The position numbers and the translations under genes are program-made. A DNA stretch of 64,000 nt, from the NCBI GenBank assembly GCA_963714525.1, contig CAVQPB010000001.1:21495-85494 (forward strand), in the 5' to 3' direction. The notes under the pieces were generated by a model. That model was not told the origin of the DNA. It was given only the letters and a program-made list of their open reading frames with translations, and ran no database searches. This DNA comes from an uncultured Pseudomonadota bacterium. GTDB taxonomy: Bacteria > Pseudomonadota > Gammaproteobacteria > Burkholderiales > JALYOK01. Below are positions 39,236 to 63,374 of the stretch, one piece after another. The first letter of the stretch is position 1. The number at the start of each line of letters is the position of its first letter.

Positions 39236-41311
39236 ATGACTACCGAAAAGATTCTTGCGACCATCCTCTTTTTACTAACGGCCAGCTTTCAAGCTTGGGG
39301 CGCGAATTTGAGCCTGCCCATCGGCGGCAAAGTGTCTGTCGAGTTGATTTCATCCGATGCGGCTTTCAGCGATTCGCTCGCGTTAGTGTCGCCCGGCGCC
39401 GCAATCGCGCTCACCGGTTGCAAAGTGGACGCCACAGCGTTTACAGGCTTAAAGCTCATGAGTGAGAAGGCCTCACAGCACGGTTGCCGCGTCGAACTCG
39501 ACGCCGATCCGGGCACGGCTGGAATACAAGCATTCCCGGCTGGCTCACTGCTACAGTTCAACCTATGCGCCCAAACCGATGCAAATCCGGCTACCTGTGA
39601 GCACGTGTGGTCGAGCAACATGGCGTCGAACTCCGATGGCTTTGACCATGTGCGAATCACGCCGATTCGCTCCGCGGAGTTCCCCAACCGGATATTCCAG
39701 TTGTCCTGGGAAGATCTCCCGGGCGGTGGCGACAACGATTTCAACGATCTCATCGCGGTGGTGCGCGTCGAACTAGATAGCGACGGTGACGGCCTGTGGG
39801 ACGATTGGGAACAATTCGGCGTCGACACCGATGGCAACGGCACGATCGATCTCAACCTCCCCGCGCTCGGCGCCAACTCACAGCACAAAGACATCTTCCT
39901 CGAAATCGATTTCATGGACTGCGCACTGGCGGGAGGGGATTGCGCAGCCGGTGATACGCACAGTCATCGACCGAAGGCGGCGGCGATCGCGGCGGCCGTC
40001 CAGGCGTTTGCCGACGCGCCGGTGCCGAATCCCGATGGAGTCAACGGGATCAATCTGCACATCGACATCAGCAATTCGGTAGCGCACCAAAATGCGCTGA
40101 ACATCAATGGGCTGTGCTTCGGCGGCGGTCCCGGCATCGGCAGCTTTGACGCTGTAAAGAATAACGCTGCTAACTTTGGACCAAACAATCCGCGGCGATT
40201 TGCCTATCGTTACTCGCTATTCACACATCAACAGTTGTTGACCACAACTAGTTCCGGCTGCGGGGAGTTACCCGGCAACGATTTTCAGGTGGCCCTTGGC
40301 GGCTGGAATGTTGGGCAGGGTGACCTAGATGGTGATGGACTTGCCGACGCAGACGTCGGAACCGTGCAGCAGCAGGCGGGTACACTTATGCACGAGTTCG
40401 GACATAATCTAAACTTGCGTCATGGCGGAAGTGACAACATTAACTTCAAGCCCAATTACTTGAGCATCATGAGCTATCACTTCCAAATGATCGGGATATC
40501 GCCTTCCAACCGAGTTGATTACTCACGTACGGCATTGCCTAATCTCAACGAAGGAAACTTGAACGAACCAGCCGGTATTGGAGACGGAACGGACAACACC
40601 AGGCATTTTTGTCCCAACAACACTCTGCGAACCGGTGTGGGCAATGCGGCCATCGATTGGAACTGCAACAACAGCACCCTAGATGCTAGCGTCGCCGTAA
40701 ATACCAACGCACAGGGTGGCTTGGAAGCGCTGGCCGGCTTTGACGATTGGACCAACATCAAATACGATTTCCAAAATGCGGGCGATTTTGAGGACGGCGA
40801 GCACGCATTCAGTGAGCGGGTTGCCGAAATCGACTACCCCACCGCCCTGCAGATCGCACCACCGACGGGCCCTAGCTGCCTTGGCGTTGCTGCAACCATT
40901 GTCGGCACCAGCGGCAACGACGCACTCAACGGTACAGCGGGAGACGACGTCATTGTCGGCATGGGCGGCAACGACATCATCAACGGCAGTGCGGGCAACG
41001 ATCTCATCTGCGCGGGCGCCGGCAACGACGCCATCAACGGCGGCGCCGGCAACGACAACATCGATGCGGGAGATGGCAACAATCAAGTAAACGGTGGCAC
41101 CGGCGATGACACCCTGACTAGCGGAAACGGTGACGACACCATAAACGGCGGCGGCGGCAATGATGCTATCTCAAGCGGTGCCGGCAGTGACGTGATCAAC
41201 GCCGGAACTGGTAATGATCGAGTAGACGCTGGACCCGGCGTAGACACGATCCAGGGCGGCGCAGGAATCGACGTCTGCATTAATGGAGAAACGATCAACA
41301 GTTGCCCGTAA
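39236..41311 (+). CDS. Secreted multidomain zinc metalloprotease: DUF4114-like N-terminal domain, metzincin-type catalytic domain, C-terminal RTX (haemolysin-type Ca-binding) beta-roll
   Basis: Signal peptide MTTEKILATILFLLTASFQAWG. The DUF4114 motif is ...EDLPGGGDNDFNDLIAVVRVE. HEFGHNLNLRHGG plus the Met-turn SIMSY fits HExxHxxxxxH. Around a dozen GGxGxDxxx nonapeptide repeats follow (GTSGNDALNGTAGDDVIVGMGGNDIINGSAGND...). The ORF track starts at 39188. Confidence 0.7.
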   Translation: MTTEKILATILFLLTASFQAWGANLSLPIGGKVSVELISSDAAFSDSLALVSPGAAIALTGCKVDATAFTGLKLMSEKASQHGCRVELDADPGTAGIQAFPAGSLLQFNLCAQTDANPATCEHVWSSNMASNSDGFDHVRITPIRSAEFPNRIFQLSWEDLPGGGDNDFNDLIAVVRVELDSDGDGLWDDWEQFGVDTDGNGTIDLNLPALGANSQHKDIFLEIDFMDCALAGGDCAAGDTHSHRPKAAAIAAAVQAFADAPVPNPDGVNGINLHIDISNSVAHQNALNINGLCFGGGPGIGSFDAVKNNAANFGPNNPRRFAYRYSLFTHQQLLTTTSSGCGELPGNDFQVALGGWNVGQGDLDGDGLADADVGTVQQQAGTLMHEFGHNLNLRHGGSDNINFKPNYLSIMSYHFQMIGISPSNRVDYSRTALPNLNEGNLNEPAGIGDGTDNTRHFCPNNTLRTGVGNAAIDWNCNNSTLDASVAVNTNAQGGLEALAGFDDWTNIKYDFQNAGDFEDGEHAFSERVAEIDYPTALQIAPPTGPSCLGVAATIVGTSGNDALNGTAGDDVIVGMGGNDIINGSAGNDLICAGAGNDAINGGAGNDNIDAGDGNNQVNGGTGDDTLTSGNGDDTINGGGGNDAISSGAGSDVINAGTGNDRVDAGPGVDTIQGGAGIDVCINGETINSCP

Positions 41312-42504: not shown

Positions 42505-43890
42505 ATGGCGATAGATACCGCCGTCGGCGAACAGTTCTTAGGAGATCTGATAAGGGCGGCCACCCGGGATGCCGCAAGTTTTGTGATGCCGGGCAGCGCA
42601 ATCGCAGCGTATTTGCTCGAGCGTGGCGCCCTCGCTTGCGCCAAGGCCGCGTGGGACTGTCTCCAGCAAATGAAGTCACAGCAACAACGGCAGCGGATGA
42701 TCAATGCGATGACACAGATTCGTCCTGATCGATCCAGGGCGATCGCGGAGACGGAGGTCGATCGCTACGCGTTCAGCCAACAGACAAAGGCCGAATTGAT
42801 CAACTATTTCTCCGCGATACCAATGACGTCTCGACATGCCATCAGCCGTCCAAATGACGGCGGCAAACCAATCACGCTGCTATCCCAGCTTCCGCGCACA
42901 CATACTGACTTGCTGCGCTTCATGCCGTTGCGGCCGCCGCGTTTTCAACCCGGCGATCAAGTGCCCGGCTATGACTATCGACTCGAGATCCTGTTGGGAC
43001 AGGGCGGGTTTGCTGAAGTGTGGAAAGCGTATCACGTCATCCAGCGCTCACAACCCGCAGTGGCGCTTAAGTTCTGCCTCGATCAGGCGCTGCTAGCGAG
43101 TCTGAAGACGGAGATAAAAGTCTACGACCAGCTTAAAGACCATCCCGACCCACAACACTTGGTCCGCCTCATTGGCACCGCTTATTCCGCTAGCTCACCG
43201 TTTCTTGTTTATGAGTACGTAGACGGTGGTGATCTGGCCGCGTGGCTCGCTGACTTCGCCGGGAAAACGCCGTCGGTTCGAGATGTCGTGCGCATATTGA
43301 AGATGACCGCTCGCGCTCTAGCCTTTGCCCATAGGCGCGGTATCGTCCATCGTGACTTGAAACCGGCGAATCTCTTGGTCACCCGGGATGGGAATGTCAA
43401 GGTGGCAGATTTTGGTATCGGTGCGATCACGGCCAGTGCTGAAGCCGAGCGTGAGCGAGGTAAGAGCGTCACTGGGGCAACCTTCTTGCAAGGGGCATAT
43501 AGCCCGATGTATTCCGATCCTCGACAACGCGCGGGCGAGGCGCCAGAGCCTAGGTTTGATGTCTATGCTCTCGGGGTCATCGCCTACCAACTGCTTATCG
43601 GCGACGTGACGCGGGAGATCGGCCCGGCCTGGCGTGCCGAGCTTGAGGAAAACAATATCCCGCCCAAAGTGCTCGATATGGTCGCCGCGTGCGTGGATGT
43701 CCCCTCGAAACGATTAGCCGATGCGGGCGCGCTACTGACGGCGCTTGATAAGCTCAATTCTGAGCAACTGAGCCAAGTAACTAGAGGTGAAACGGTCTCC
43801 GAGGTTCTAATCAACTATTGCATCCAATGCGGCGCAAAAATTCAGGCCGATGACAGATTCTGTACGCGGTGCGGAAACAACATCCGATAG
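42505..43890 (+). CDS. Hanks-type Ser/Thr protein kinase with ~150-aa N-terminal extension and C-terminal zinc ribbon
   Basis: GQGGFAEVWKA...VALKF (VAIK-like)...HRDLKPANLL...DFG...APE-like region. C-terminal CIQCGAKIQADDRFCTRCG. Confidence 0.8.
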   Translation: MAIDTAVGEQFLGDLIRAATRDAASFVMPGSAIAAYLLERGALACAKAAWDCLQQMKSQQQRQRMINAMTQIRPDRSRAIAETEVDRYAFSQQTKAELINYFSAIPMTSRHAISRPNDGGKPITLLSQLPRTHTDLLRFMPLRPPRFQPGDQVPGYDYRLEILLGQGGFAEVWKAYHVIQRSQPAVALKFCLDQALLASLKTEIKVYDQLKDHPDPQHLVRLIGTAYSASSPFLVYEYVDGGDLAAWLADFAGKTPSVRDVVRILKMTARALAFAHRRGIVHRDLKPANLLVTRDGNVKVADFGIGAITASAEAERERGKSVTGATFLQGAYSPMYSDPRQRAGEAPEPRFDVYALGVIAYQLLIGDVTREIGPAWRAELEENNIPPKVLDMVAACVDVPSKRLADAGALLTALDKLNSEQLSQVTRGETVSEVLINYCIQCGAKIQADDRFCTRCGNNIR

Positions 43891-44027: not shown

Positions 44028-45063
44028 GTGATTCTCAGCATGCGACGGTCGCTATTCGGGCTCGCTATCGTATTGTTGTGCGCAGACTCGATAGTGCGCG
44101 CGCAAGAGGTGACACTAAAGCTACACCATTTCGTGCCGCCGACGGCTACTGCCCACGTCAAATTTCTTGCCCCTTGGGCGGACAGGATCGCCAAGGAATC
44201 CAACGGCCGCATCAAAATTCAGATCTATCCGGCGCTGCAGCTCGGCGGCACGTTACCGCAGTTACTCGATCAGGTGAAAGATGGCGTGGTCGACATCGTC
44301 TGGGCGATTCCGGGCGCAAGCGCGGGCCGCTATCCCGCCTTCGAAGCCTTCGAGTTGCCGTTCATGACCAAGACTGCGCAAGGGTCGAGCCGCGCGCTTT
44401 GGGGCTACGTGCATCTTAACAAGCTCGATCAAACGGAACTCAAGGCGTTCAAGTTGTTGGCGACCCACGTCCACGATGCAGGTGTGATTCACACCATCGC
44501 CAAACCGATTCGCACCCTTGCCGATTTCAAGGGCATGAAAATACGCGCGCCCACGCGCTGGACTACTAAGATGCTGGCCTCGTTCGGCGCGACGCCGGTC
44601 GGTATGCCAGTCAATCAAGTGTCGGAAGCGCTTTCCAAAGGCGTGATCGACGGCACAATTTTGCCTTGGGAAATCGTGCCTAGTCTGAAAGTGCATGAAT
44701 TGGTGAAATTTCACACCGAAACCAATCCGAGTTCCCGAGCGCTGTATACGACCTCATTCGTAGTGGCGATGAACCCAGCCAAGTATGCGAGCTTACCGGC
44801 TGATTTGAAGCGAGTGATCGACAATAACAGCGGCGTGGAATTTTCTGCATTGGCGGGAAAAATGTGGGATGATTCCGCTGCGCCCCATCGCAAATTGGCC
44901 CAGGCCCACGGCAATCAATTCATCCCTTATCGCAGGACGAACTCAAACTCTGGGCCACGGCGAGCCAGTCGGTAGCCGAGGATTGGATCCGCGAAGTCGA
45001 CGGCAAAGGATACGATGGCAAGGCGCTGTTGAAGAGCGCAAAAGAACTAATCGAAAAATATGA
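44028..45063 (+). CDS. dctP: TRAP transporter substrate-binding protein DctP-family, with an apparent -1 frameshift at a C-run near 44925
   Basis: Signal peptide, then the DctP fold. The C-terminal tail ...PLSQDELKLWATASQSVAEDWIREVDGKGYDGKALLKSAKELIEKYDSKIK is in a different frame after ...AHGNQFIP. The site is atccctta, where one more c restores the frame. Confidence 0.8.
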
Positions 45064-45078
45064 TTCGAAAATAAAATA

Positions 45079-45591
45079 ATGGCTGAACCCATTCCAGGTG
45101 TCGTTCATCAACTGGCCGAGGGTTGGGGGCGGCCCATCGAATTACTTTGCCGCGGTTTCGCCCTATTCGGCGGGTCTATTCTGGTCGCTGTCGCGTTGAT
45201 GTCCGTGGCCAGTGTGGTGGGCCGCGCGTTATTCGGGCAACCCGTGACGGGCGATTTCGAGTTGGTGCAGATGGGATCGGCCATCGCCGTTGCGGCATTT
45301 TTGCCCTATTGCCAAATTCGACGCAGCCACGTGATCGTGGATTTCTTTACCCATACGGCATCGTTTCGCACCCGTCGCGTGCTCGATATCATCGGCGCTT
45401 TTCTGTTGAGCGCCTGTGTCGCCTTGGTTGCGTGGCGCACGGTAGCGGGCGCGTTGGCGCTAAAAGAAAATCAAGAAACCTCCATGCTGCTCGGCGTGCC
45501 GATCTGGTATTCCTATGCGCTCATCGCGCCGTCGTTGGCCCTATTGGCGATCGCCGGTTTTTACACAGCCGTTAATCAACCGAAAAAATAA
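45079..45591 (+). CDS. dctQ: TRAP transporter small permease DctQ
   Basis: 170 aa, 4 TM helices, directly between dctP and dctM. Confidence 0.8.
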   Translation: MAEPIPGVVHQLAEGWGRPIELLCRGFALFGGSILVAVALMSVASVVGRALFGQPVTGDFELVQMGSAIAVAAFLPYCQIRRSHVIVDFFTHTASFRTRRVLDIIGAFLLSACVALVAWRTVAGALALKENQETSMLLGVPIWYSYALIAPSLALLAIAGFYTAVNQPKK

Positions 45592-47220: not shown

Positions 47221-49428
47221 ATGTACAGATTTGTTGTTCTTTCGGCGATTTTTTTCTTCGCCCTTGCCTCTAGCGCACAAACCATTTCCCTTGAGCCGGT
47301 CGTTGCGGGCTTAAAAAGTCCCATCGGCGTTTACCACGCCGGCGATGGCTCCGGCCGTTTGTTCATCCTCGAACAAGGCGGTTACGTCCGAATCTGGAAC
47401 GGCACTCAACTTCTGACCACACCATTTCTCAACATCGACGTCTTGACTAACGGCGGTGGTGAGCAAGGCCTGTTGGGCATTGCGTTTCATCCGAATCACG
47501 AATCTAACGGTTTCTTTTTTGTCAGCTACACGGACTTGTCCGGAAACACGGTGATCGCTCGTTATAGTGTGTCCACCGCGAATCCCAATGTCGCCAACGC
47601 CAGTTCCGGCACAACGATTTTATCTGTTGCGCAGCCTTTCTCTAATCACAACGGTGGTCAAATTCAATTCGGCCCCGATGGTTATCTTTACATCTCCATG
47701 GGGGACGGCGGCGACGCGGGCGATCCGGGAAATCGCGCGCAAAATCTCACCACAATGCTGGGAAAGATGCTGCGTATCGATGTCGATCGTGGCCTGCCTT
47801 ACACCATTCCCGCGACCAACCCGTTCGTCGGCAATACCAATGCCGCGGTCAAAAAAGAAATCTGGGCTTATGGTTTGCGTAACGCCTGGGGCTTTAGCTT
47901 CGATCGCAGCACCGGCGATCTCATCATGGGCGATGTAGGCCAGAATGCCTGGGAAGAAATCGATTTCCAGCCGCGGTCCAGCGCCGGCGGTGAGAACTAC
48001 GGCTGGCGCAAGATGGAAGGTAATAACTGCTTCAATCCCTCGACCAACTGTAATGATGGCACGCTTACCCTACCGATCATCCAGTACAGTCATGCTGCGG
48101 GCAACTGTTCCGTGGCGGGCGGTTATCGCTACCGCGGCAGCCGCTGGGCGACGCTGACGGGCACTTATTTTTACGGCGATTTATGCAGCGGACGCATATG
48201 GGGCGCCAAGCCAAGCGGCGCGACTTGGGTCACCAACCAACTTCTCGACACGGCGCTCACCATCAGCGCATTCGGCGAGGACGAAGCGGGCGAAGTGTAT
48301 GTAGTCGATCTGGATAGCGCGAACGGCGCGGTCTATCGTATTGCGTCTACCAGTAGTACTACGGAAATCATCGTAGATAATTTACCCGCCGGTGGTCGGG
48401 ATGCGACGCGAACATTTACGGGAACATGGTGTAAGTCCGGCGCTGCCGGGTTTTACGGCGCGGATTCCCTCTACAGTTGCGGCAGCGGTATCGACACCTA
48501 TCGCTGGACCCCCAACATTTCCAGCGACCGCGCCTACGACGTCTATGTGCGTTGGACTGCCAACCCGAATCGTTGGACGGCGGTTCCGGTAACAGTCGTT
48601 CACGCAGGGGGAACCACCACGCAGAATTTCAATCAGCGCATTAACGGCGCCGTGTGGACTCTCCTCGGACGGTTTACATTTAATGCGGGAACCGCCGGTT
48701 ATATCGAAACTAACGATAGCGCCGGCCAAGCTAACGCAGACGCAGTACGCCTAGTTCCCGCGTCGGGACCTGCCACGGCGAAATTGACGGTAAGCAAGGC
48801 GGGGAGCGGCAGCGGACGCGTAAGCTCTAATCCCGCCGGTGTTGATTGTGGCGCCGATTGCACGGAGGACTTTTCGCTTAACAGCGTCGTGCAAGTTACG
48901 GCGACACCCGATGCCGGTTCGACGTTTTTCGAATGGGGCGGACCCTGCGCCGGAAATGGCGCTTGCACGATCACCATGAACGATTCGAAATTCCTGGCGG
49001 CCACCTTCCGCGTGACCGATGTCATTGTCGACAACGCCGGTTTGGGGGTACAAGATACAGCCGGTGGACGAACCTTCACGGGTACATGGTGTAGATCGTC
49101 TGGCCTGCTGCCTTTTGGCGCCGAATCCTTGGCGAGTTGCGGCAGTGGGCTCGATACCTATCGGTGGACGCCGAAAGTTCCGAAAGCGGGGGGCTACGGT
49201 GTTTACGTCTGGTGGACCACCCATCCCAATCGCTCGAGCACTGTACCGATCACGATTCAGCATGCCGGTGGCAACACAACCGTGCACGTAGATCAGAAAG
49301 TCAACGGCGGGAAGTGGGTGTTGCTCGGCACTTACAATTTTTCTGCAGGCTCCGTTGGCTCCGTTCAAGTCAGCGATGCAAATGGCCAAGCCTGCGCCGA
49401 TGGGATCAAACTTGTTCCTGCGTTTTAG
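47221..49428 (+). CDS. Secreted PQQ-dependent soluble sugar dehydrogenase-like beta-propeller + divergent InlB-B-repeat + two copies of a ~125-aa C-terminal module
   Basis: RBS AGGAG. Signal MYRFVVLSAIFFFALASSAQ. GSDH-like N-terminal ~400 aa (GLLGIAFHPN..., NHNGGQIQFGPDGYLYIS). B-repeat region ...LTVSKAGSGSGRVSSNPAGVDCGADC...WGGPC. The modules lie at ~48367-48762 and ~49021-49425 (IIVDN...FTGTWC.S...YSCGSG.DTYRWTP...Y.VYVWW...NR...VP.T..HAGG...Q..NGG.W.LLG...F.AG..G......A.GQA.AD..KLVPA). Confidence 0.7.
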   Translation: MYRFVVLSAIFFFALASSAQTISLEPVVAGLKSPIGVYHAGDGSGRLFILEQGGYVRIWNGTQLLTTPFLNIDVLTNGGGEQGLLGIAFHPNHESNGFFFVSYTDLSGNTVIARYSVSTANPNVANASSGTTILSVAQPFSNHNGGQIQFGPDGYLYISMGDGGDAGDPGNRAQNLTTMLGKMLRIDVDRGLPYTIPATNPFVGNTNAAVKKEIWAYGLRNAWGFSFDRSTGDLIMGDVGQNAWEEIDFQPRSSAGGENYGWRKMEGNNCFNPSTNCNDGTLTLPIIQYSHAAGNCSVAGGYRYRGSRWATLTGTYFYGDLCSGRIWGAKPSGATWVTNQLLDTALTISAFGEDEAGEVYVVDLDSANGAVYRIASTSSTTEIIVDNLPAGGRDATRTFTGTWCKSGAAGFYGADSLYSCGSGIDTYRWTPNISSDRAYDVYVRWTANPNRWTAVPVTVVHAGGTTTQNFNQRINGAVWTLLGRFTFNAGTAGYIETNDSAGQANADAVRLVPASGPATAKLTVSKAGSGSGRVSSNPAGVDCGADCTEDFSLNSVVQVTATPDAGSTFFEWGGPCAGNGACTITMNDSKFLAATFRVTDVIVDNAGLGVQDTAGGRTFTGTWCRSSGLLPFGAESLASCGSGLDTYRWTPKVPKAGGYGVYVWWTTHPNRSSTVPITIQHAGGNTTVHVDQKVNGGKWVLLGTYNFSAGSVGSVQVSDANGQACADGIKLVPAF

Positions 49429-49460
49429 GTGAATTGCTTTAATCAAATGAGGAGATCTAA

Positions 49461-51650
49461 ATGCCTGCACTTGTACAGCGCGCGATCCCTAAAGTAATAT
49501 TCCTTGCGCTCACCATAATGTTTTTTGCACAGCAAGCCACTGCACAAGTTGCATCGCCTTTCCCAGTGGCTAATCCGAGCTTCGAAGGAAGTTATGGCGC
49601 GCTTGCGGACTGCAGCAATATCACCGGCGAAGTGGCCATGGGTTGGAGCGATAATACCTGCTGGGACGAGCGCCGCCCAGTGATACGCTATGCACGGGAT
49701 ACGGTCAACCCGCATAGCGGTACCGCATCGCAAAAAATTACCTTGGTGAGCGGCAGCCGCGTGCAGTTTTCTCAGTTTCTGTCGCTGGCTTTTGAGGCAG
49801 GTAAGCGCTATTCGACTTCCGTTTGGATGCGTGCGCAGGCGCCGATGTTCGCGACCATCGTGTTGCGGCAATCAGGTCCGCCGTACACCGGTTACACCAG
49901 CAAGTTAATCCGGCTCTCGACAGCCTGGACGCGGTTTGATCTCGACGGTTTCACCGATAGCACGGACATTGTGCTGCTTGTTATCGCGGAGTCGCCGGGT
50001 ACTTTTTGGATCGACGACGTTGCGATCCAAAGCGAAGCCTCAAACGCTCTCAGTCCCTCGCCGCCGACAACTGCCGTGCCGCGCGCTTATTTCGCCATGC
50101 ATTTCAATCGTCTCGATACGCCTTGGCCGCGGGTAAATAATGCCATCGGTTCGGTCAGGATTTGGGACGCGGGAGAAAATCGTAACGGATCCGGCACGGG
50201 CGCGCAATGGTCGGAAATAAATGCCGTGGCGGGCAGCTTCGATTGGAGCGGCCTCGACGCACGCGTTGCGGCGGCGCTAGCGAATAACGCCGATATCGTT
50301 TACACGTTGGGTGGCCGCACCCCGCAATGGGCTTCCGCCCGGCCCGATGTATTTAGCCCCTATGGGCCTGGTCAATGTGCCGAACCTAAGAGCGACCAAG
50401 TATGGCAAGACTGGGTGCGAACCATCGCCACGCGCTACAAAGGGAAAATCAAACTTTGGGAGGTGTGGAACGAGCCTGATATTGCCGATTTCTACTGCGG
50501 TTCGCCCGACAAACTCGTGGATCTCGCACGGCAAGTCTACGCTATCGTCAAACAAGTCGATCCCACCAACCGCGTATTGTCTCCGGGCTTTAGCGGTTAT
50601 CAAGGCCCAGGGTATCTAGATTATTATTTAGCGAAGGGTGGGGCGCAGTACGCGGATATCTTGAGCTATCACTTCTACGTCGATACGCCCGAGCAAAACG
50701 CGGGAGGACGCATGGCAAATCTCCGGTCCACGATTCAGCGCTATGGTGCGCAAGCCAAACCGCTGTGGAATACCGAACAGGGCTGGATCGAAATTCCGAC
50801 CCCGACGCCGATTCCACAGGCGACGGCTGCGGCCTATGTCGCTCGCACCTACCTGCTGAATTGGGCCTACGGTATCGGGCGTTACTACTACTACACTTGG
50901 GATAATCAATGGAACCGCTTTCAGTTTGTTCAGGCCGATGGCTTGACCTTGACGCCTGCCGGAGTTGCCTACCGTGAAGTGGCGCAGTGGATGACAGGGA
51001 AGGTCATGGAGTCGCTCAGCAGCGATGTGAACGGCACTTATGTTGCAACGTTGCGCGACACCGGTGGCAAAAAGTTGCGTGTGCTGTGGAACCCGCGGCA
51101 AAGTGTGCAATTCGCGCTCCCCGCAAGTTGGGGCGTTAACCAGCAACGAAACCTTGCTGGCGCCCTGGTGAATTTGACCGGAAAGACGAGTGTCGCAATC
51201 GGTGCGTCACCGGTCTTGCTCGAGCAAGCCGCAGCGTCCGGAACCGAAATCATACTGGATAATCTGTTGGCCGGCGGACGTGATGCCACGCGCAGTTCTA
51301 CCGGCACCTGGTGTCAATCTATCGCAGCCAATAAATACGGCGCAACCTCGCTCTACAGTTGTGGCGCCTCGACTGACACCTACCGCTGGACGCCGAACTT
51401 GCCGAAAGCCGGTAGGTATGAAGTCTACGTCTGGTGGGCAAGCAACCTCAATCGCTCGACCCGCGTTCCGATCAGTGTGGTTTCGGCCACGGGATCGGTC
51501 AGTAAAATCGTCGACCAGAAAACCACAGGGGGTAGTTGGGTTCTACACGGCATCTATAGCTTTACCGCGGGTACGACGGGCTACGTGCAAGTGAGCGATG
51601 TCAATGGCCAGGCGGGTGCCGATGCGGTGAAATTCGTAGCGGTACCATAG
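49461..51650 (+). CDS. Secreted glycoside hydrolase (clan GH-A-like, WEVWNEPD acid/base motif) with N-terminal CBM-like domain and the same ~125-aa C-terminal module
   Basis: Signal peptide. PSFEGS...WIDDVAIQ reads as a CBM4/9-like jelly roll. The catalytic (beta/alpha)8 has ...KLWEVWNEPD.... C-terminal module at ~51247-51647 (EIILDNLLAGGRDATRSSTGTWCQS...YEVYVWW...VQVSDVNGQAGADAVKFVAVP). Confidence 0.7.
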   Translation: MPALVQRAIPKVIFLALTIMFFAQQATAQVASPFPVANPSFEGSYGALADCSNITGEVAMGWSDNTCWDERRPVIRYARDTVNPHSGTASQKITLVSGSRVQFSQFLSLAFEAGKRYSTSVWMRAQAPMFATIVLRQSGPPYTGYTSKLIRLSTAWTRFDLDGFTDSTDIVLLVIAESPGTFWIDDVAIQSEASNALSPSPPTTAVPRAYFAMHFNRLDTPWPRVNNAIGSVRIWDAGENRNGSGTGAQWSEINAVAGSFDWSGLDARVAAALANNADIVYTLGGRTPQWASARPDVFSPYGPGQCAEPKSDQVWQDWVRTIATRYKGKIKLWEVWNEPDIADFYCGSPDKLVDLARQVYAIVKQVDPTNRVLSPGFSGYQGPGYLDYYLAKGGAQYADILSYHFYVDTPEQNAGGRMANLRSTIQRYGAQAKPLWNTEQGWIEIPTPTPIPQATAAAYVARTYLLNWAYGIGRYYYYTWDNQWNRFQFVQADGLTLTPAGVAYREVAQWMTGKVMESLSSDVNGTYVATLRDTGGKKLRVLWNPRQSVQFALPASWGVNQQRNLAGALVNLTGKTSVAIGASPVLLEQAAASGTEIILDNLLAGGRDATRSSTGTWCQSIAANKYGATSLYSCGASTDTYRWTPNLPKAGRYEVYVWWASNLNRSTRVPISVVSATGSVSKIVDQKTTGGSWVLHGIYSFTAGTTGYVQVSDVNGQAGADAVKFVAVP

Positions 51651-51720
51651 CGGATAACTCGCAACGATGCCGTGCCGCACATGGTCGGTGTTGCGTTTAG
51701 ATAGTTTTGGGGAGAAAAGG

Positions 51721-51984
51721 ATGAGACGGGCATTTAAGATTTTGTCGAGTATAAGTGCGCTGCTGTTTTTATCGATTCTAACTTTCGGTCACGCTTCAGC
51801 GGTCGAAATTATTCTCGATAATGCCGCCCTAGGCGTGCAAGATACAGTAGGTGGCAGAACGTTCACAGGCAAGTGGTGTACCTCCATCGCGACCGCTAAG
51901 TTTGGCGCGAATTCCTTTTACTCCTGCGGTAGCGGTCCCGATACTTATCGGTGGACACCGAAAATTATCGTTGCCGGATCCTAC
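51721..51984 (+). pseudogene. Fourth member of the module family (signal peptide + module only), truncated after ~55 module residues by the IRt of the transposon
   Basis: MRRAFKILSSISALLFLSILTFGHASA then VEIILDNAALGVQDTVGGRTFTGKWCTS...DTYRWTPK. The reading frame then runs into the transposon IR (tgtcgttttcagaagacg...). Confidence 0.6.
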
Positions 51985-52127
51985 TGTCGTTTTCAGAAGA
52001 CGATTGCACCAATTATCTGGACGTAACGCCCGGAGTGCAGTCAACTCCTGATAGCCAAGTATCAGAAGTCATCTTCACCAATCTCGACTATGCTCAATAC
52101 TCGTGTGCACCAAAGCGAGGTGAGAGC

Positions 52128-52491
52128 ATGGCGTCAGACACTTCATTGATCGCCGAGCAAGGCGTGGCCACACTGCCCGATGCGGCATGGGCGCAAGCCC
52201 GGCAACGGGCGGAATTCATCGGGCCGCTGGCAGCCCTTGATGTGGTCGGGCATGAAGCTGCCGATGCCGCTGCTCACGCGCTTGGTCTGTCTAGGCGGCA
52301 GGTGTATGTCCTGATCCGCCGTGCCCGGCAAGGTTCGGGGCTTGTGACGGACTTGGCTCGCAGCCGATCTGGCGGAGGCAAAGGCAAGGGACGCTTGCCG
52401 GAATCGGTCGAGCGCATCATCCGTGAGCTGCTGCAAAAGCGCTTCCTGACCAAGCAGAAACGCAGCCTGGCGGCGTTCCACCGCGAAGTAG
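52128..52491 (+). pseudogene. tniA: tniA 5' segment (Mu-like DDE transposase), interrupted by an IS21-family insertion
   Basis: MASDTSLIAEQGVATLPDAAWAQARQRAEFIGPLA...LSRRQVYVLIRRARQGSGLV...LTKQKRSLAAFHREV, then the IS end. Confidence 0.8.
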
Positions 52492-52723
52492 TGCGTATTT
52501 CACGCGAACGTGACCGTTGATTTAGCGGTGTGACCGGTCATTTCAAAAATATCGTGACCGGTGAATTCAGAAATAGCGTGACCGGTTATGGATAGATTTT
52601 TGAAATAAAAGCCACGCTGTAGCGTGGCGAATTTTGTTAAGGGGAAAGTGCGAAGGTAATTGAAGATATTTGGTAGCCTGCGCTCCATTTCGAGGAGCGA
52701 GGATGCCCAGTCGGAGAATTACC

Positions 52724-54248
52724 ATGCGCAAGATCAAAGAAGTATTACGGTTACGCTACGCCTGCGGGCTGTCGCTGGAACAAATCGCCCGCGCCCAGAA
52801 TCTGTCCAAAGGCGTGGTCGCCAAATATTTGAAGCGCGCTGCCGCCGCCGGGATCGATGGCGCGATCGCGCAGACCCTGGCTGAAGCCGATTTAGTCGAG
52901 CGGCTCAAACCGAGTAACGACACCCGCGACAGTCGAGTTTCACCGCCCCCGATTTCGCCCAGATTCACCAAGCCCTGAAGCAATCGAGCGTCACGTTGCA
53001 ATTGCTGTGGGAAGACTACCGTGATCAGTGTCCTGGTCGCCCTTACCGCTACACCAGCTTCTGCGTCCAATATCGAATCTTTGCCAAAGCCCTGAAGCGC
53101 TCCATGCGCCAAGTCCACCGCGCCGGTGAGAAACTATTCGTTGATTACGGTGGCCAGACTCTTTCGGTCATTGACCCGGCCAGCGGCGAAATCCGCCGCG
53201 CCCAAGTGTTCGTCGCGGTGCTCGGCGCCTCGAATTACACCTATGCCGAAGCCACCTGGACCCAAACCGCCGCCGACTGGCTAAGCGCCCATTGCAGCGC
53301 ATTGGCGTATTTCGGCGGGTGTCCCGAGATAGTGGTGCCGGGCAATGCGCGCGCCTTGATTGCTGATCCGGATCGCTACGAACCTTCGCTGGGTCTCGCG
53401 CACCAAGAATGGGCGGCACACTATGGTTGCGCTGTCATTCCGGCGCGCCCGTACCGGCCGCAAGATAAAGCCAAAGTCGAAGTGGGTGTACAAGTGGTGG
53501 AGCGCTGGATTCTGGCGCGACTGCGAGCACGGCAATGTTTTAGCCTGGCCGAACTCAATGCCGCAATTTGGATGTTGTTGACCGACCTGAACCAACGCCC
53601 GTTAAGAAACTGCCGGGCAGTCGCGCCAGCGCCTTCGCTACCCTCGACCAACCGGTGCTCAAACCGTTGCCTGTAACCGTGTTTGAATTAGCGCGCTGGA
53701 AGAAAGCCCGGGTGTCAATTGACTACCACGTTGATATCGAACGTCACTATTACAGCGTGCCGCATCAATTAGTCGGCGAGTTGGTCGAGGTGCGCATCAC
53801 CGCCCGCATGATCGAATGTTTGCATCATGGCAAACGCGTCGCCAGTCATGTCAGAAGTGCCTTGCCCGGTCGCCACACCACCCAGGCGGATCACATGCCC
53901 AAGTCTCACCGCGCGCACTTGGAATGGACGCCGGGACGGTTGCTCAATTGGGCGTTGTCCATCGGTCCGGCTACTCGCGATGTCGCTCAATACCAGCTCG
54001 AATCTAAACCCCATCCGGAAATGGGTTATCGCGCCTGCTTGGGACTGATGCGCTTGGCGCGTCAATACAATCCGGCACGGTTGGAATTGGCGTGTGTACG
54101 GGCGCGGGCTTTACGGGCGATGACGTATCGCTCGGTCGCGGCGATTCTGAAGGCCGGCCTGGAGCAACAACCCTTGCCGCCACCCCGGCAAATTGATCTG
54201 GCGTTACCCGTGCACGCCAATGTGCGCGGCTCGAAGTATTACCACTAA
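52724..54248 (+). CDS. istA: IS21-family transposase IstA (two apparent frameshifts, ~52935 and ~53600)
   Basis: MRKIKEVLRLRYACGLSLEQIARAQNLSKGVV (HTH), then QLLWEDYRDQCPGRPYRYTSFCVQY...DYGG... (DDE), then a C-terminal segment. The three ORF-track pieces are contiguous in homology. The first shift is a missing g in ccggat. Confidence 0.7.
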
Positions 54249-54263
54249 CCTGAAAGGAATCTC

Positions 54264-54998
54264 ATGCTGAATCAACATACCTTGCAGTTATTAACCCAAC
54301 TCAAACTCGATGGTATGGCACGCGCCTTCGAGGAACAATCCAGCCAGACCCATGCCGCCAGTTTATCGTTCGAAGAACGCTTTGGTCTCCTGGTGGATCG
54401 GGAATTCACGCATCGCGATACGAAACGGGTTGACCGATTATTGAAGCAGGCAAAACTAAAAGTCGCGGGGGCGTGTGTAGAAGATATCGATTACCGCGCC
54501 GGCCGCGGCTTGGATAAACGGGCGATGGCCAGCTTATCGACGTGTGATTGGATCCGCCATAGGCACAGCATATTAATTGCCGGGGCGACCGGTTGTGGCA
54601 AGACGTGGCTGGCCTGTGCGTTCGGCCAGCAGGCGTGTCGTCAGGGCTTCTCGGTGCTGTATGTTCGCGTACCGCGGTTGTTCGAGGAGTTGCGTATCGC
54701 CCACGGCGACGGCAGCTTTACCCGTAAGCTCGCCGCCTTGGCGCGCACCGATGTGTTGCTGTTGGACGATTGGGGTGTGAATCCGCTGACGCAGCCGGAG
54801 CGTGCCGATCTATTGGAAATCCTGGATGATCGGGTGGCAACGCGTTCAACGATCATCACCAGTCAACTCCCGGTCGAGCATTGGCATGAGTATTTGGCCG
54901 ATCCGACGTTGGCCGACGCTATCCTGGATCGGATCGTGCATCAAAGTCATAAATTGAAACTCAAAGGCGAGTCGCTTAGAAAGCAAGAATCCGCATGA
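54264..54998 (+). CDS. istB: IS21-family helper ATPase IstB
   Basis: 244 aa. Walker A GATGCGKT and the DnaC-like AAA+ fold. Confidence 0.85.
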
Positions 54999-55136
54999 TT
55001 CCGGAAACGGCAACAACGCGCTTCGCGCACCGGTGCGTGACCGGTTAGTGTAAGTGTATCGCCTTCGCTGTCCCATCAGCACCGGTCACGTTATTTCTGA
55101 AATGATCGGTCACGTTCGCTGAAATACGCAAAGTAG

Positions 55137-56450
55137 CCGGCTTGCAAAACGCAAAAGCTGCGGGTGCCGGCGCGCAACACCATTGCCTTACGGATCGCCA
55201 ACCTCGACCCGCTCAAAACCGCTCGCCACCGGGAAGGGCAAGATGCCGCCCGCTGCCTGCAAGGTGACGGCGGGGAGCCTACTGCCGTGACCGCGCCACT
55301 CGAACAGGTGCAGATCGACCATACGGTCATTGACCTGATCGTGGTCGATGAGCGCGACCGGAAACCGATTGGCCGCCCGTACCTGACCGTCGGCCATCGA
55401 CGTGTTTACAGCGCTGCGTGCTCGGCATGGTGGTCACGCTGGAAGCGCCGTCGGCCGTCTCGGTCGGGCTGTGCCTGCGCGCATACTGCCTGCGACAAGC
55501 GTCCGTGGCTGGAAGGGCTCGGATGTAGAAGTGGAGTGGGCGAAGAGCGGCAAACCTAAGCAGCTCTACTGGACAACGCAGCCGAGTTCAAGAGCGAGGC
55601 ACTGCGCCGGGCTGCGAGCAGCATGGCACGGTTGGACTATCGCCCACCTGGGCAGCCGCACTACGGCGGCATCGTAGAACGGATCATCGGCACGGCGATG
55701 CAGATGATCCACGATGAATTGCCGGGGACGACCTTCTCCAATCCCGACCAGCGCGGGGCTTACGATTCCGAGAAGAAGGCCGCCCTGACGCTGCGTGAGC
55801 TGGAGCGCTGGCTGACATTGGCGGTGGGCACCTATCACGGCTCTGTGCACAACGGCTTGCTCCAGCCACCAGCGGCACGCTGGTCCGAGGCCATGGCGCG
55901 TGTCGGTGTGCCGGCGGTCATCACCCGCGCCACGGCTTTCCTGGTCGATTTCCTGCCGGTCATCCGCCGCACCCTGACCCGCACGGGCTTCGTCATCGAC
56001 CACATCCACTATTACGCCGATGCGCTCAAGCCGTGGATCGCGCGGCGTGACCGCTGGCCGGCCTTCCTGATCCGCCGCGACCCGCGCGACATCAGCCGCA
56101 TCTGGGTACTGGAACCGGAAGGTCGGCACTATCTGGAAATTCCCTACCGTACCTTGTCGCACCCTGCTGCCACCCTGTGGGAACAACGGCAGGCGCTGGC
56201 GAAATTGCGGCAGCAAGGGCGCGAACAGGTAGATGAATCGGCGCTGTTCCGCATGATCGGGCAGATGCGCGAGATCGTGAGCGGCGCACAGAAGGCGACG
56301 CGCAAGGCGCGGCGCGACGCGGATCGGCGCCGGCACCTCAAAGTGTCGGTTCCACCGGCCAAGCCAACTCCGCCGGAAACGGACGTTGCTAACCCGCAGG
56401 TGGACAACCTGCCACCGGCCAAACCGTTCGACCAGATCGAGGAGTGGTAG
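55137..56450 (+). pseudogene. tniA: tniA 3' segment; additionally carries several frame changes between ~55330 and 55620
   Basis: ...AQKLRVPARNTIALRIANLDPLKTA...VQIDHTVIDLIVVDERDRKPIGRPYLT [shift] ...CDKRPWLEGLG [shift] VEVEW...[shift]...LDYRPPGQPHYGGIVERIIGT...PAKPFDQIEEW. These pieces are spread over three frames (ORFs 55164, 55402, 55623). Confidence 0.75.
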
Positions 56451-56452
56451 CC

Positions 56453-57360
56453 GTGGACGAATATCCCATCATCGACCTGTCCCACCTCCTGCCGGCAGCA
56501 CAGGGCCTGGCTCGGCTGCCGGCGGATGAGCGCATCCAGCGTCTTCGCGCCGACCGCTGGATCGGCTATCCGCGTGCGGTCGAGGCATTGAACCGGCTGG
56601 AAACCCTGTATGCGTGGCCGAACAAGCAGCGCATGCCCAACCTGCTGCTGGTCGGCCCGACCAACAACGGCAAGTCGATGATCATCGAGAAATTCCGGCG
56701 CACGCATCCGGCCAGCTCAGATGCCGACCAGGAACACATTCCGGTGCTGGTCGTGCAGATGCCGTCCGAACCTTCGGTGATCCGCTTCTACGTCGCGCTG
56801 CTCGCCGCGATGGGCGCACCATTGCGCCCGCGCCCACGGCTGCCGGAAATGGAGCAACTGGCGCTGGCCTTGTTGCGCAAGGTCGGCGTGCGCATGCTGG
56901 TGATCGACGAGCTGCACAACGTCTTGGCCGGAACAGCGTCAACCGCCGGGAATTCCTCAACCTGCTGCGCTTCCTCGGCAACGAGCTGCGCATCCCGCTG
57001 GTCGGCGTCGGCACGCGCGACGCCTACCTGGCCATCCGCTCGGATGACCAGTTGGAAAACCGCTTCGAACCCATGATGCTGCCGGTGTGGGAGGCCAACG
57101 ACGATTGCTGCTCACTGCTGGCCAGCTTCGCCGCTTCGCTACCACTGCGACGGCCGTCCACGATCGCGACGCAGGACATGGCCCGCTATCTGCTCACCCG
57201 CAGCGAGGGCACTATCGGCGAACTGGCGCACCTGCTGATGGAAGCCGCCATCGCCGCCGTGGAGAGCGGCGAGGAAGCGATCAACCACCGCACGCTCAGC
57301 ATGGCCGATTACACCGGCCCCAGCGAGCGGCGACGCCAGTTCGAGCGGGAACTGATGTGA
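56453..57360 (+). CDS. tniB: TniB AAA+ transposition ATPase, with an apparent -1 frameshift near 56935 (ggaaacagc read as ggaacagc)
   Basis: ...LLVGPTNNGKS (Walker A)...VIDELHNVLAG, then in the next frame NSVNRREFLNLLRFLGNELRIPLVGVGT...RRQFERELM. Confidence 0.8.
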
Positions 57361-58574
57361 AGCCGGCACCGCGCTGGCCACTGCATCCTGCCCCCAGAGA
57401 AGGCGAAGCCCTGTCCTCATGGCTCAATCGTGTCGCCGCCTGCTACCACATGGACTTGCACGACCTACTGGAACACGATCTCGGTCGCGGCCACGTCGAT
57501 GACCTGGATACCGCACCGTCGCTGTCGCTGCTGACGGTTCTCTCGCAGCGCAGCAGCATCGAGCAGGACCGGCTGCGGTGCATGAGCTTTGCCGGCTGGG
57601 TGCCATGGCTGCTGGATAGCCTGAATGATCGGATTCCAGATGCCTTGGAAACCTATGCGTTCCAGTTCTCGGTACTGCTGCCGAAATTCCGCCGTAAGAC
57701 GAGATCGATCACAAGCTGGTGTGCCTGGCTGCCCAGCCGGCCAATCCACCGCGCCTGCCCACTTTGCCTGAACGATCCGACGAATCAAGCCATATTGCTT
57801 GCATGGAAACTGCCGTTGATGCTGAGCTGCCCACAACATGGTTGCTGGCTCGAATTCTATTGGGGCGTACCAGGGCGGCTTCTCGGCTGGGAGAACACCG
57901 ACACTTCGCCGCGCGCGGTCACCGAAGCGATTGCGGCGATGGATCGACGTACCTGGCAAGCGCTGACAACAGGATACGTCGAGTTGCCGCGCAGGCGCAT
58001 CCATGCTGGCCTGTGGTTCCGGCTACTGCGCACATTGCTCGACGAGTTGAACACCCCACTCTCTCTGTGCGGAACGTTCGCGCACAGTATCCGCTATGTC
58101 TGGGAACGTTGCGGACATCCGCTGCGAGCGGGGCAAAGTCTGTGGCGTCCCTACGAAATTTTGCCCCTAGAGGTCCAGTTGCAAATGCTGGAAGCAGCGG
58201 CCACTGCCATCGACCTGATCGAATCGAAGGTGTTGAGTCCCGGCGGAAAACAGGCGGCATTGTTCTTGTCGGAACCGCAGACCGCGTTCACCGACGGCAT
58301 GCCGGTGGTTGAGCGAAAGGAGGAACCAGTCAATTATTGGCAGAAAGCGATCAAAGCAATTGAAGAGGCCATCGTCGAGGCGCGGCACAACCCCGTGACG
58401 GCCCGCTCCCTGTTTGCGCTGACCTCCTATGGTCAGCGCGACCCCGAGTCTTTGGAGCGCTTGCGCATCACGTTTGCCAATGAGGGCATCCCCCCGGAAT
58501 TTCTGTCATATTATGAGCCTGACGGCCCCTTTACATGTCGTAGACTAAATGACGGGTTAAGTGACAGTTTTTGA
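57357..58574 (+). CDS. tniQ: TniQ transposition target-selection protein
   Basis: GTG start overlapping the tniB stop (ATGTGA). VKPAPRWPLHPAPREGEALSSWLNRVAACYHMDL... has high similarity to Tn5053 TniQ as recalled. Confidence 0.8.
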   Translation: MKPAPRWPLHPAPREGEALSSWLNRVAACYHMDLHDLLEHDLGRGHVDDLDTAPSLSLLTVLSQRSSIEQDRLRCMSFAGWVPWLLDSLNDRIPDALETYAFQFSVLLPKFRRKTRSITSWCAWLPSRPIHRACPLCLNDPTNQAILLAWKLPLMLSCPQHGCWLEFYWGVPGRLLGWENTDTSPRAVTEAIAAMDRRTWQALTTGYVELPRRRIHAGLWFRLLRTLLDELNTPLSLCGTFAHSIRYVWERCGHPLRAGQSLWRPYEILPLEVQLQMLEAAATAIDLIESKVLSPGGKQAALFLSEPQTAFTDGMPVVERKEEPVNYWQKAIKAIEEAIVEARHNPVTARSLFALTSYGQRDPESLERLRITFANEGIPPEFLSYYEPDGPFTCRRLNDGLSDSF

Positions 58575-58634
58575 CGACTAGAACTTTCTGGCCCACACTG
58601 TCACATAATCGAACGTATATGTGACAGGTGCGAC
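58575..58634 (+). promoter_or_regulatory. res (resolution) site region upstream of tniR
   Basis: Palindromic tgtcacataatcgaacgtatatgtgaca between tniQ and tniR, in the position of the Tn5053-family res. Confidence 0.55.
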
Positions 58635-62466: not shown

Positions 62467-63374
62467 GGCAGCACACAATGGCCTTAGCAACGTAAATCTG
62501 AGGCGGCGGTAGAACGTTTTGACTGATTGCGACATGGTTCTGGCGCCACCAGTGCGAACCACACACAACCTGCTCTACTCCTTGCACACACTGCGCTAGT
62601 CCCGGTGCGGCGCAGGTAGATAAGGCCACCCCTCACGTTGGCGCCGTGGCTTTCATCCACCGGTCCGGCTCCAGCCCGAACGGGCATACGCAATTCAAAT
62701 GTGGGTCGATGGAGTTACGGACAACCGCAAGACTTCCAGCTACCTGCCGTTCGCGACCATCTCATTACGCTGCCTTGCGGGTTTACATTCTTCTCGATAC
62801 CAGACCTTCATTTCGGCTGCTTGAATAGTGGAGTTCAATCAAAAAGGTCCCCCTGCCAGGCTGCGTGGCGTTGCTCCAGAACACCGAGTCGGCATATCTT
62901 GCAGCCAAGGCCCCCAGGTCAATGCTCTGCTCATCGTCGCTGAATTCGAACGACCCAAACATGTTCACGTGCTGCCACGCTACCGGCGAAATCCCTTGAA
63001 TGAATGCAATAGCATCCAGATCCCCGGCCGCCACCTTCTATTCGTATAGCGTTTGGTATTCCTATCCACCAATGGAAGCACCAAAGTGCGGAATTACACT
63101 GAGTTGACCACTGGATTGCATCTGAGCTGACCAGACAAAATCATCAACTTGACCGGTCCAAGTCGAACCGCCGCAGTAGGCCAGTGAACTCAATCGATCG
63201 TATAGATGAAGAGCCTTGGCTCACATGACGATCTGAATAAGTTCAAGTGCGGGGACGAATACAAGCCCGACGACTACGTCGGCAACTGTTTCGTACCCGC
63301 ACCCATCTTCACATGCGGCATTGTTAGTGCAGCCCACTTCTAAACTTACGTGCAGTCGTCTTCTGAAAACGACC

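Follow-up and report, generated by a model that had tools for sequence, protein, structure and literature searches.

Golvesin, from Dictyostelium discoideum, is a eukaryotic membrane protein of the Golgi and post-Golgi and is used as a marker of that compartment. To our knowledge, neither an enzymatic head nor a ligand has been described for it. The domain catalogued as IPR033803 is reported to occur not only in golvesin but also in the xanthan lyase of Bacillus GL1 and in the Bacteroides lectins Cbeg4 and Cbeg5 (PMC9166713). When isolated, the Cbeg4/5 domains bound a defined N-glycan motif on an array of 609 glycans (PMC9166713). In Paenibacillus nanensis, the terminal module of the xanthan lyase PXL, a PL8 enzyme, is given in a review as binding xanthan, and xanthan lyase deprived of its binding modules shows reduced activity and a raised Km (PMC10881899).

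Here, a similar module is described from three neighbouring genes of a proteobacterium. The window, that is, the whole 64-kb stretch of DNA analysed, carries them side by side on the forward strand, and they are referred to as P1, P2 and P3. The shared module of around 135 residues is the Pfam family PF25275 (Golvesin_C), which is already catalogued and has a solved structure. An initial sequence-only reading had described the module as unexplained and not assignable with confidence; in fact, it belongs to a named family, and glycan binding has been assayed for some of its members (PMC9166713; PMC10881899). That reading would have given up its case if the module confidently matched a well-characterised domain, and the PF25275 match largely does this.

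Organisation of the locus

The ORFs agree with the reading of three adjacent, co-oriented genes with signal peptides. Canonical Sec-type leaders, read by eye, are present at the N-terminus of each protein, namely MYRFVVLSAIFFFALASSA before QT in P1, MPALVQRAIPKVIFLALTIMFFAQQATA before QV in P2 and MRRAFKILSSISALLFLSILTFGHASA before VE in P3. The start of P1 is placed at the Met at 47221, though the ORF opens at 47152, as the orthologue in the related genome L002 begins at the equivalent Met. A scan of the three-gene stretch for promoters and terminators gave counts no higher than the shuffled expectation, and for this reason an operon can be argued only from the gaps of 32 nt and 16-67 nt between the genes. 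The features are collected in Table 1.

Table 1. Features of the three-gene locus and of the adjoining transposon ends
Feature	Position	Strand	Basis or remark
P1 gene	47221..49428	+	735 aa, counted from Met-24 of the 758-aa 47152 ORF
P1 signal peptide, MYRFVVLSAIFFFALASSA before QT	47221..47277	+	n-region R, hydrophobic core, A-x-A-like SSA site (by eye)
P1 head, glucose/sorbosone dehydrogenase (soluble PQQ-type) beta-propeller	47311..48339	+	Pfam PF07995, aa 54-396 of the 758-aa ORF
Golvesin_C copy 1, P1 internal	48358..48765	+	hmmsearch aa 380-515 of the 735-aa protein, E 1.6e-65; tblastn
Divergent InlB B-repeat (Flg_new_2), spacer between the P1 modules	48787..49011	+	Pfam PF18998
Golvesin_C copy 2, P1 C-terminal	49012..49425	+	copy used for the structure model
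P2 gene	49461..51650	+	729 aa
P2 N-terminal CBM_4_9-like region	49695..49955	+	PF02018 E 0.0026, 18.6 bits, below cut-off 25.9
P2 (beta/alpha)8 clan GH-A catalytic domain	50205..50972	+	Pfam and PDB matches
Golvesin_C copy 3, P2 C-terminal	51240..51647	+	hmmsearch aa 594-729, E 5e-64; Pfam E 2.7e-26
P3 ORF	51667/51718..52026	+	ORF list
P3 remnant, signal peptide and first ~62 module residues	51718..51984	+	module part 51799-51984
Left 25-bp terminal inverted repeat, TGTCGTTTTCAGAAGACGATTGCAC	51985..52009	+	Tn5053/Tn402-family transposon; P3 reads into the repeat
Right terminal inverted repeat, same transposon	63350..63374	-	23/25 identical to the left repeat

P1 consists of a signal peptide, a six-bladed propeller of the GSDH/HHIP-like kind, a Golvesin_C module, an InlB B-repeat and a second Golvesin_C module. 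The propeller matches Pfam GSDH with an E-value of 2e-43. Among solved structures, it matches HHIP (1e-45) and, less closely (5e-21 to 6e-14), sGDH and aldose sugar dehydrogenases of bacteria. The B-repeat just passes its Pfam cut-off (E 3.8e-5, 24.0 bits against 23.6), and the same domain is present in the L002 orthologue. Thus, the PQQ-type dehydrogenase with an InlB B-repeat that had been read from the letters is borne out. A scan with NCBIfam returned no model for the module and only a weak subfamily match for the P1 head.

In P2, the signal peptide is followed by a weak CBM4/9-like sandwich, a glycosidase of clan GH-A (PslG/GH39-like) and a Golvesin_C module. The sandwich matches the CBM4 structure 1gui with an E-value of 0.0012, and PF02018 is precomputed on several homologues. 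For the catalytic domain, the Pfam matches are Glyco_hydro_cc (4e-8), GH10 (1e-6), GH5 (5e-5) and GH39 (3e-4), and the closest solved structure is PslG, a GH39 enzyme (E 4.5e-9). The NEP motif (…WEVWNEPD…) and the TE motif (…WNTEQGW…) can be read in the sequence. The proposed CBM plus GH-A head was therefore correct, with a weak match for the CBM part. Orthologues with identical domain order share 60-89% identity with P2. The module is present in most homologues of the P2 head of at least 60% identity and is absent from the remoter ones of around 590-620 aa.

The module and its family

In the window, there are four copies of Golvesin_C: two in P1, one in P2 and a partial one in P3. Five had been counted earlier; a DNA repeat finder reports a four-copy family, and a tblastn search of the window with each of the four revealed no fifth. 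Between copies, tblastn gives E-values of 1e-44 to 1e-47 at 51-56% identity, so the sharing of the module is far beyond chance. A recent duplication in situ was considered and rejected, as the copies are only 51-56% identical, against around 73-76% for the orthologous copies of L002. P1 matches the Golvesin_C profile with 184.5 bits (E 1e-54, two copies, profile positions 8-131 of 132) and P2 with 92.6 bits (E 3e-26, one copy, positions 10-131 of 132), where the gathering threshold of PF25275 is 31.6 bits. The hmmsearch envelopes, 403-538 and 621-758 of the 47152 ORF and 594-729 of P2, match the boundaries first estimated (aa ~405-535, ~625-758 and the last ~135 aa of P2).

With a single module sequence as the query, phmmer identifies residues 905-1037 of PXL (6F2P; E 3.6e-25). 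When the module profile is run against all PDB chains, residues 904-1040 of the same structure are matched with an E-value of 1.9e-35, and no other match is significant. The predicted fold of P1 copy 2 is a beta-jelly-roll of the CBM6/35/36 type, superposable on the solved member 6F2P. The guesses of a CBM-like beta-sandwich, of a golvesin-C-like domain and of a role in substrate binding or targeting agree with the Pfam family, the homology to 6F2P and the jelly-roll fold. IPR033803, entitled "CBM6-CBM35-CBM36_like_2", appears to describe the same family as PF25275, since both include golvesin and xanthan lyase.

The family is very large. An exhaustive HMM search yielded 12,098 cluster representatives, many of them with 2-11 copies; it was needed for the family size, as a word-index search for homologues gave few matches, mostly short. 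In a survey of partner domains covering 54 of the 12,098 representatives, Golvesin_C was fused to many unrelated partners. Across 629 domain copies, the residues conserved in at least 80% (numbered as in P1 copy 2) are G24, W26, Y62, V64, W68, R74, Q95, G99, W102, G106, G113 and A129-D130-A131. P1 copy 2 has all of them except at 131, where Gly replaces the consensus Ala. They are mostly invariant in the window copies and close relatives; in P1 copy 1, W68 is changed to Arg and G99 to Ala.

The two cysteines had been included in the conserved skeleton of the module. They are instead the mark of one Golvesin_C subfamily and not of the whole family: both are present in 53 copies, one in 3 and neither in 472 (Fisher p 9e-70, kinship of the copies being ignored). 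It was suggested earlier that they form a disulfide, and their strict co-variation supports this. The pair probably staples a 15-residue loop, which would fit an extracytoplasmic protein. The loop between them is the sole low-confidence stretch of the predicted model (pLDDT 60).

The truncated third gene

Of the third gene, P3 is only the 5' part: a Tn5053/Tn402-type transposon, through its inverted repeat, ends it at nt 51984. It had been held that every gene ends with the module and that the third has a signal peptide alone as its head; neither holds for P3, in which around 62 module residues run into the 25-bp repeat. The Pfam score for the fragment is only 18.4 bits (profile positions 9-55 only) because the module is truncated. 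The L002 orthologue, of 849 aa, has a signal peptide, two modules and a right-handed beta-helix. By BLASTP, P3 aligns collinearly with its leader and module 1 at 54% identity and is 74% identical to its module 2. The remainder of gene 3 was found neither beyond the right transposon end nor anywhere in the window.

The element has the make-up of the Tn5053/Tn402 family, in which 25-bp inverted repeats surround tniA-tniB-tniQ and the resolvase gene tniR: both repeats are present, and Pfam detects TniB, TniQ, Resolvase and Mu-transpos_C (the Mu-transposase C-terminal domain) within it. Its right repeat adjoins a 3'-truncated ECH_2 hydrolase gene, which up to the junction is 76% identical to the neighbouring gene of L002. 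No 5-bp target duplication is present at the ends (CCTAC versus AGCAC), which fits an adjacent deletion.

The site in related genomes

The module recurs outside this genome, both among the family representatives and at the same chromosomal site in the related genomes L002 and L011. On one side of this site is a TRAP dctPQM transporter and on the other are valine-catabolism genes. In L002, it holds a P1 orthologue (76% identity) followed by the two-module beta-helix protein, and in L011, a tandem row of four Golvesin_C proteins that includes a P2 orthologue. Within this clade of uncultured Pseudomonadota, the secreted enzymes seem to vary by genome: a PQQ-type sugar dehydrogenase, a PslG-like glycosidase, a beta-helix enzyme, a BNR/sortilin propeller and a lactonase propeller would be swapped here. 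Most of them appear to carry the Cys-pair subfamily of Golvesin_C.

It may be speculated that this is a variable island of exchanged enzymes in which the disulfide-stapled subfamily is the common label for a single polysaccharide. The dehydrogenase, lactonase and TRAP transporter would then form one route, by which an extracellular aldose would be converted to a lactone and an aldonic acid and then taken up. This scheme is regarded as rather doubtful.

Possible roles of the module

Alongside the module homology, predicted fold, copy number, P3 truncation and recurrence in related genomes, all computed here, we infer that the modules are quite likely carbohydrate-binding jelly-rolls of the calcium type, which tether secreted enzymes to one polysaccharide. 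Two of them sit on the PQQ-type sugar dehydrogenase, one at the C-terminus of the PslG/GH39-like glycosidase and, before the transposon arrived, one or more would have sat at the N-terminus of the beta-helix enzyme. After export by the Sec pathway, the modules would bind the polysaccharide. Given the 51-67% identity between copies, all three proteins probably share one target. The catalytic domains would thereby be kept at or close to the substrate, and their effective concentration would rise. The reported outcome of removing the binding modules from xanthan lyase is an effect of this sort.

Another role is that of retention, wherein the module binds glycans of the producer's own envelope or exopolysaccharide, and any secreted protein bearing it stays attached. 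Golvesin_C partners are often not carbohydrate-active, as with Calx-beta adhesin repeats, PKD, S8 proteases and RHS toxins, so the module may often bind a surface or matrix glycan and not the substrate of its partner. A peptidoglycan amidase (Amidase_3, P0308) is also among the partners, the core residues are conserved regardless of partner, and tandem arrays, which reach 11 copies, would favour avid binding to a surface polymer of repeating units. Further, the solved structure closest to the P2 head is that of PslG, whose substrate is an exopolysaccharide made by the producer itself. However, both members studied so far are reported to bind glycans of foreign origin, namely xanthan (PXL) and a host N-glycan (Cbeg4/5) (PMC10881899, PMC9166713). 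All partners at this locus act on sugars, so that it is simpler to suppose that they are targeted to their substrate, and no self glycan is pointed to by the locus data. Retention is regarded as unlikely here, albeit the most serious of the alternatives.

The C-terminal position of the modules in P1 and P2 would also suit a secretion or sorting tag, that is, an export signal or a processing domain removed after secretion. The xanthan lyase of Bacillus GL1 does lose a C-terminal fragment after secretion. Nevertheless, copies are also internal (P1 copy 1) and N-terminal, right after the signal peptide, in P3, the 849-aa protein of L002 and a 626-aa protein of L011. Arrays of 2-11 copies are common, all three proteins already have Sec leaders, and the fold is that of a sugar-binding jelly-roll. 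A sorting or export domain in the strict sense, C-terminal and single-copy, was rejected on account of the internal, N-terminal and tandem copies, and a tag of any such kind is hardly credible. An inert spacer, a calcium-stabilised beta-sandwich adding only solubility or stability to extracellular enzymes, is also very improbable. PXL is listed in a review as destabilised when Ca2+ is removed (PMC10881899), and two conserved motifs, DN near the N-terminus and ADA near the C-terminus, seem to resemble a structural metal site. Yet the family-wide conservation of the loop residues R74, Q95, W102 and W26 is unexpected for a mere spacer, and homologous domains in isolation bind glycans (PMC9166713).

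Most likely, the locus encodes ordinary modular secreted enzymes with the usual role of carbohydrate-binding modules, and it amounts to little as a discovery. It adds a proteobacterial Golvesin_C subfamily with a co-varying Cys pair, documents fusions to a PQQ-type sugar dehydrogenase and a PslG-like glycosidase, and reveals a conserved chromosomal site with a small island of module-tagged enzymes, variable in content. Golvesin_C is a very large family of which little has been characterised, and assigning a ligand to any of its subfamilies would aid the annotation of thousands of proteins.

Comparison with known systems

The closest described system is PXL, whose terminal module (6F2P, around 904-1040) is homologous to those of the window. 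It has Thr/Thr where the window modules have the Cys pair. PXL carries its module on a PL8 lyase and comes from a Gram-positive bacterium; the window modules are from a proteobacterium and accompany a PQQ-type dehydrogenase, a GH-A glycosidase and a beta-helix enzyme, and the ligand of these copies need not be xanthan. The secreted Cbeg4 and Cbeg5 are likened by domain family only, through the IPR033803 domain also present in golvesin and xanthan lyase. They are pure lectins without a catalytic head, with a mammalian N-glycan motif as the ligand (PMC9166713). Among other relatives, architectures of Fn3 with PF25275 are found (P0291, P0293, P0307).

With CBM35, CBM6, CBM36 and CBM84 (3ZM8, 2VZP, 2CDP, 1UX7, 7EHG), the likeness is at the level of the fold, with structural identity of 9-19%. 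The module profile run against all PDB chains met the CBM35 structure 2VZP only with an E-value of 0.34, and it met no CBM84 or CBM6 chain. Membership in CBM35, CBM6 or CBM84 was rejected, as there is no significant sequence similarity; Golvesin_C is a separate family within the CBM6/35/36 fold class. Golvesin itself gave PF25275 its name and shares the same Pfam domain with the window proteins by family definition.

A repeated Golvesin_C module in three secreted proteins

The proteins encoded by three neighbouring genes of the window (P1, P2 and P3) share a repeat of ~135 residues, termed here the module; the other domains of each protein are its head. The repeat is real: when each copy was searched against the 64-kb window by tblastn, the other copies were recovered at E 1e-44 to 1e-47 with 51-56% identity, and a DNA repeat finder independently returned a four-copy family. 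P1 contains two copies (copy 1 internal, copy 2 C-terminal), P2 a single copy and P3 an incomplete one. The sequence-only reading had counted five, but tblastn found no further match in the 64-kb window. Its signal peptides were borne out, as canonical Sec-type leaders are seen by eye at the N-terminus of all three proteins. The genes are separated by 32 nt (P1-P2) and 16-67 nt (P2-P3). A simple scan across P1-P3 found no promoter or terminator signals above shuffled expectation, so a single operon is at most plausible.

The module, earlier called unexplained, belongs to a named family. Pfam assigns it to PF25275 (Golvesin_C), P1 scoring 184.5 bits and P2 92.6 (cut-off 31.6) at near-full profile coverage, while NCBIfam holds no model for it. 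Against all PDB sequences, the PL8 xanthan lyase of Paenibacillus nanensis (PXL, 6F2P) was matched at residues 905-1037 by a single module sequence (E 3.6e-25) and at residues 904-1040 by a 12-sequence profile (E 1.9e-35); the sole other match was a CBM35, at E 0.34. AlphaFold2 modelled P1 copy 2 with confidence (pLDDT 88.5) as an all-beta structure of 11 strands, and Foldseek agrees with this fold. Together, these searches and the model place the module as a separate sequence family inside the CBM6/35/36-type jelly-roll fold, which upholds the earlier guess of a CBM-like, golvesin-C-like domain.

Conserved positions and a putative disulfide

Across the family, G24, W26, Y62, V64, W68, R74, Q95, G99, W102, G106, G113 and A129-D130-A131 are conserved (numbering of P1 copy 2), as is the N-terminal DN wherever aligned. 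A structural metal site is probably made up by DN and ADA; R74, Q95 and W102, which lie in loops, are candidate ligand contacts. Among 629 aligned copies, cysteines at 27 and 43 are both present in 53, one is present in 3 and neither in 472 (Fisher p 9e-70, copies being treated as independent of relatedness). PXL, unlike the window module, has Thr at both positions, and the two cysteines flank the sole low-confidence loop of the model. This supports a putative disulfide specific to one subfamily.

Heads and upstream genes

The head of P1 is a GSDH-family propeller; its matches are HHIP (1e-45) and, at 5e-21 to 6e-14, sGDH and bacterial aldose sugar dehydrogenases. That of P2 belongs to clan GH-A, its NEP and TE motifs reading as intact, and PslG is its best solved relative (4.5e-9). 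P2-head homologues of 60% identity or more (726-739 aa) mostly carry the module and remoter ones (about 590-620 aa) lack it, so the module is an add-on gained within this lineage.

The TRAP transporter genes dctPQM lie upstream. The solute-binding gene dctP has a frameshift near nt 44925, after which its conserved C-terminus (…SQDELKLWATASQSVAEDWIREVDGKGYDGKALLKSAKELIEKYDSKIK) carries on in a different frame, so that dctP is a pseudogene or else bears a sequencing indel. Further upstream, one gene encodes a 707-aa protein with RTX repeats (HemolysinCabind) and a DUF4114 domain, and another a Ser/Thr protein kinase bearing a zinc ribbon at its C-terminus; neither is evidently connected to the module genes. 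The Pfam scan of the neighbourhood also revealed a 759-aa ORF of unusual architecture, in which an ABC-transporter ATPase domain is fused to UPF0261 N- and C-terminal domains.

Truncation of P3 by a transposon

The likeness of P3 to the module ends at nt 51984, where a 25-bp terminal inverted repeat follows directly, TGTCGTTTTCAGAAGACGATTGCAC (51985-52009), whose partner at 63350-63374 is identical at 23/25 positions. Between them lie a tniA-type transposase and, identified by Pfam, TniB, TniQ and a serine resolvase, features that mark the element as Tn5053/Tn402-type. An IS21-family element lies inside tniA with its istA broken, so the transposon that killed P3 has in turn been disrupted by a degenerate IS.

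The 5-bp flanks of the transposon differ, with no target duplication, and hence this is not a simple insertion. P3 is collinear with the leader and first module of an 849-aa protein in L002, the syntenic locus of an uncultured proteobacterium MAG. On the far side, the converging ECH_2 hydrolase gene is 76% identical to its L002 neighbour up to the junction, where it lacks its last few codons and its frame ends inside the inverted repeat (…WSFSEDDCT*). Compared with L002, about 2.3 kb of flanking sequence has thus been lost, made up of what followed P3 in its beta-helix gene and the last few codons for the hydrolase. P3, cut at the inverted repeat and shorter than its L002 orthologue, is a gene stump. 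Of the three heads first described, those of P1 and P2 are thus genuine and the 'signal peptide alone' is a truncation artefact; overall, repeat, leaders and two heads stood, and copy number and third head did not.

Coordinates of the features (window numbering)
Feature	Position	Strand	Remark
ABC-ATPase/UPF0261 fusion	28236-30515
RTX-repeat protein	39188-41311
Ser/Thr kinase	42505-43890
dctP	44028-45080		frameshifted
P1 ORF	47152/47221..49428	+	start 47221 from L002 orthologue's Met
P2 ORF	49461..51650	+
P3 ORF	51667..52026	+	start likely 51718
Tn5053/Tn402-family transposon	51985-63374		~11.4 kb; 25-bp inverted repeats at both ends
IS21-family element	~52510-55120		inside tniA
istA	52670-52978, 52996-53676, 53568-54248		three ORF pieces
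istB	54264-54998
tniB	starts 56444
tniQ	to 58574
Resolvase tniR	58635-59249
LysR regulator	60238-61146	-	transposon cargo
416-aa ORF	61216-62466		transposon cargo
ECH_2 (3-hydroxyisobutyryl-CoA hydrolase-like)	63346-63969	-

The locus in relatives and the wider family

Recurrence outside the source genome, set earlier as a test, was found at two loci. L002 carries, in order, dctPQM, a P1 orthologue (76% identity), the 849-aa protein and the hydrolase gene; P2 is absent. In the 849-aa protein, a signal peptide is followed by two Golvesin_C modules and then by a right-handed beta-helix that weakly resembles chondroitinase B. The metagenome contig L011 (39 kb) represents the same chromosomal site, adjoining the valine-catabolism genes also found beside the window locus, and its stretch 1-11674 bears four module proteins in tandem: an upstream protein represented by its C-terminus, a BNR/sortilin-type propeller carrying a module, an orthologue of P2 (72% identity, GH-A head) and a protein of 626 aa whose module is N-terminal. 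A beta-helix fragment and a lactonase-type propeller of 900 aa are present as well. The module-tagged secreted proteins appear to form a small variable island that is not confined to one genome.

When 1.84 billion cluster representatives were searched exhaustively with an HMM, 12,098 proteins passed E <= 1e-3, of which 6,745 also passed E <= 1e-10; many have 2-11 module copies. When 54 of the best matches, each of 1000 aa or less, were scanned against Pfam, the partners were Calx-beta (10), PKD (5), InlB B-repeat (5), S8 protease (3), Laminin_G_3 (2), chondroitinase B (2), RHS (2), GSDH (1), polysaccharide deacetylase (1) and galactose-oxidase-like (1); Fn3 and Amidase_3 were seen in a separate set of relatives.

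Proposed function and comparison with known systems

The modules would act as carbohydrate-binding modules, and the most likely mechanism, which we consider probable, is that they hold the secreted enzymes on one common polysaccharide. For the xanthan lyase, a review states that removing the binding modules reduces activity and increases Km (PMC10881899, sec. 18). The main rival, by which the modules retain the proteins on surface or matrix glycans of the producer itself, is rather unlikely. The tandem module proteins of L011 and its lactonase-type propeller also suggest that the island possibly serves an extracellular route from aldose to aldonic acid, via dehydrogenase and lactonase, followed by TRAP uptake.

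IPR033803 (CBM6-CBM35-CBM36_like_2) is found in golvesin, the Bacillus GL1 xanthan lyase and the secreted Bacteroides lectins Cbeg4/5, and its census covers 865 UniProt proteins in 108 architectures (PMC9166713). On a 609-glycan array, the isolated Cbeg4/5 domains bound the Gal-beta-1,3-GlcNAc-beta-1,2-Man-alpha-1,3-Man motif (PMC9166713). We tentatively equate IPR033803 with PF25275 because golvesin and the xanthan lyase are common to both. Thus, the module family, a solved homologue and the glycan binding of members are already known, and the module described here is a further member.
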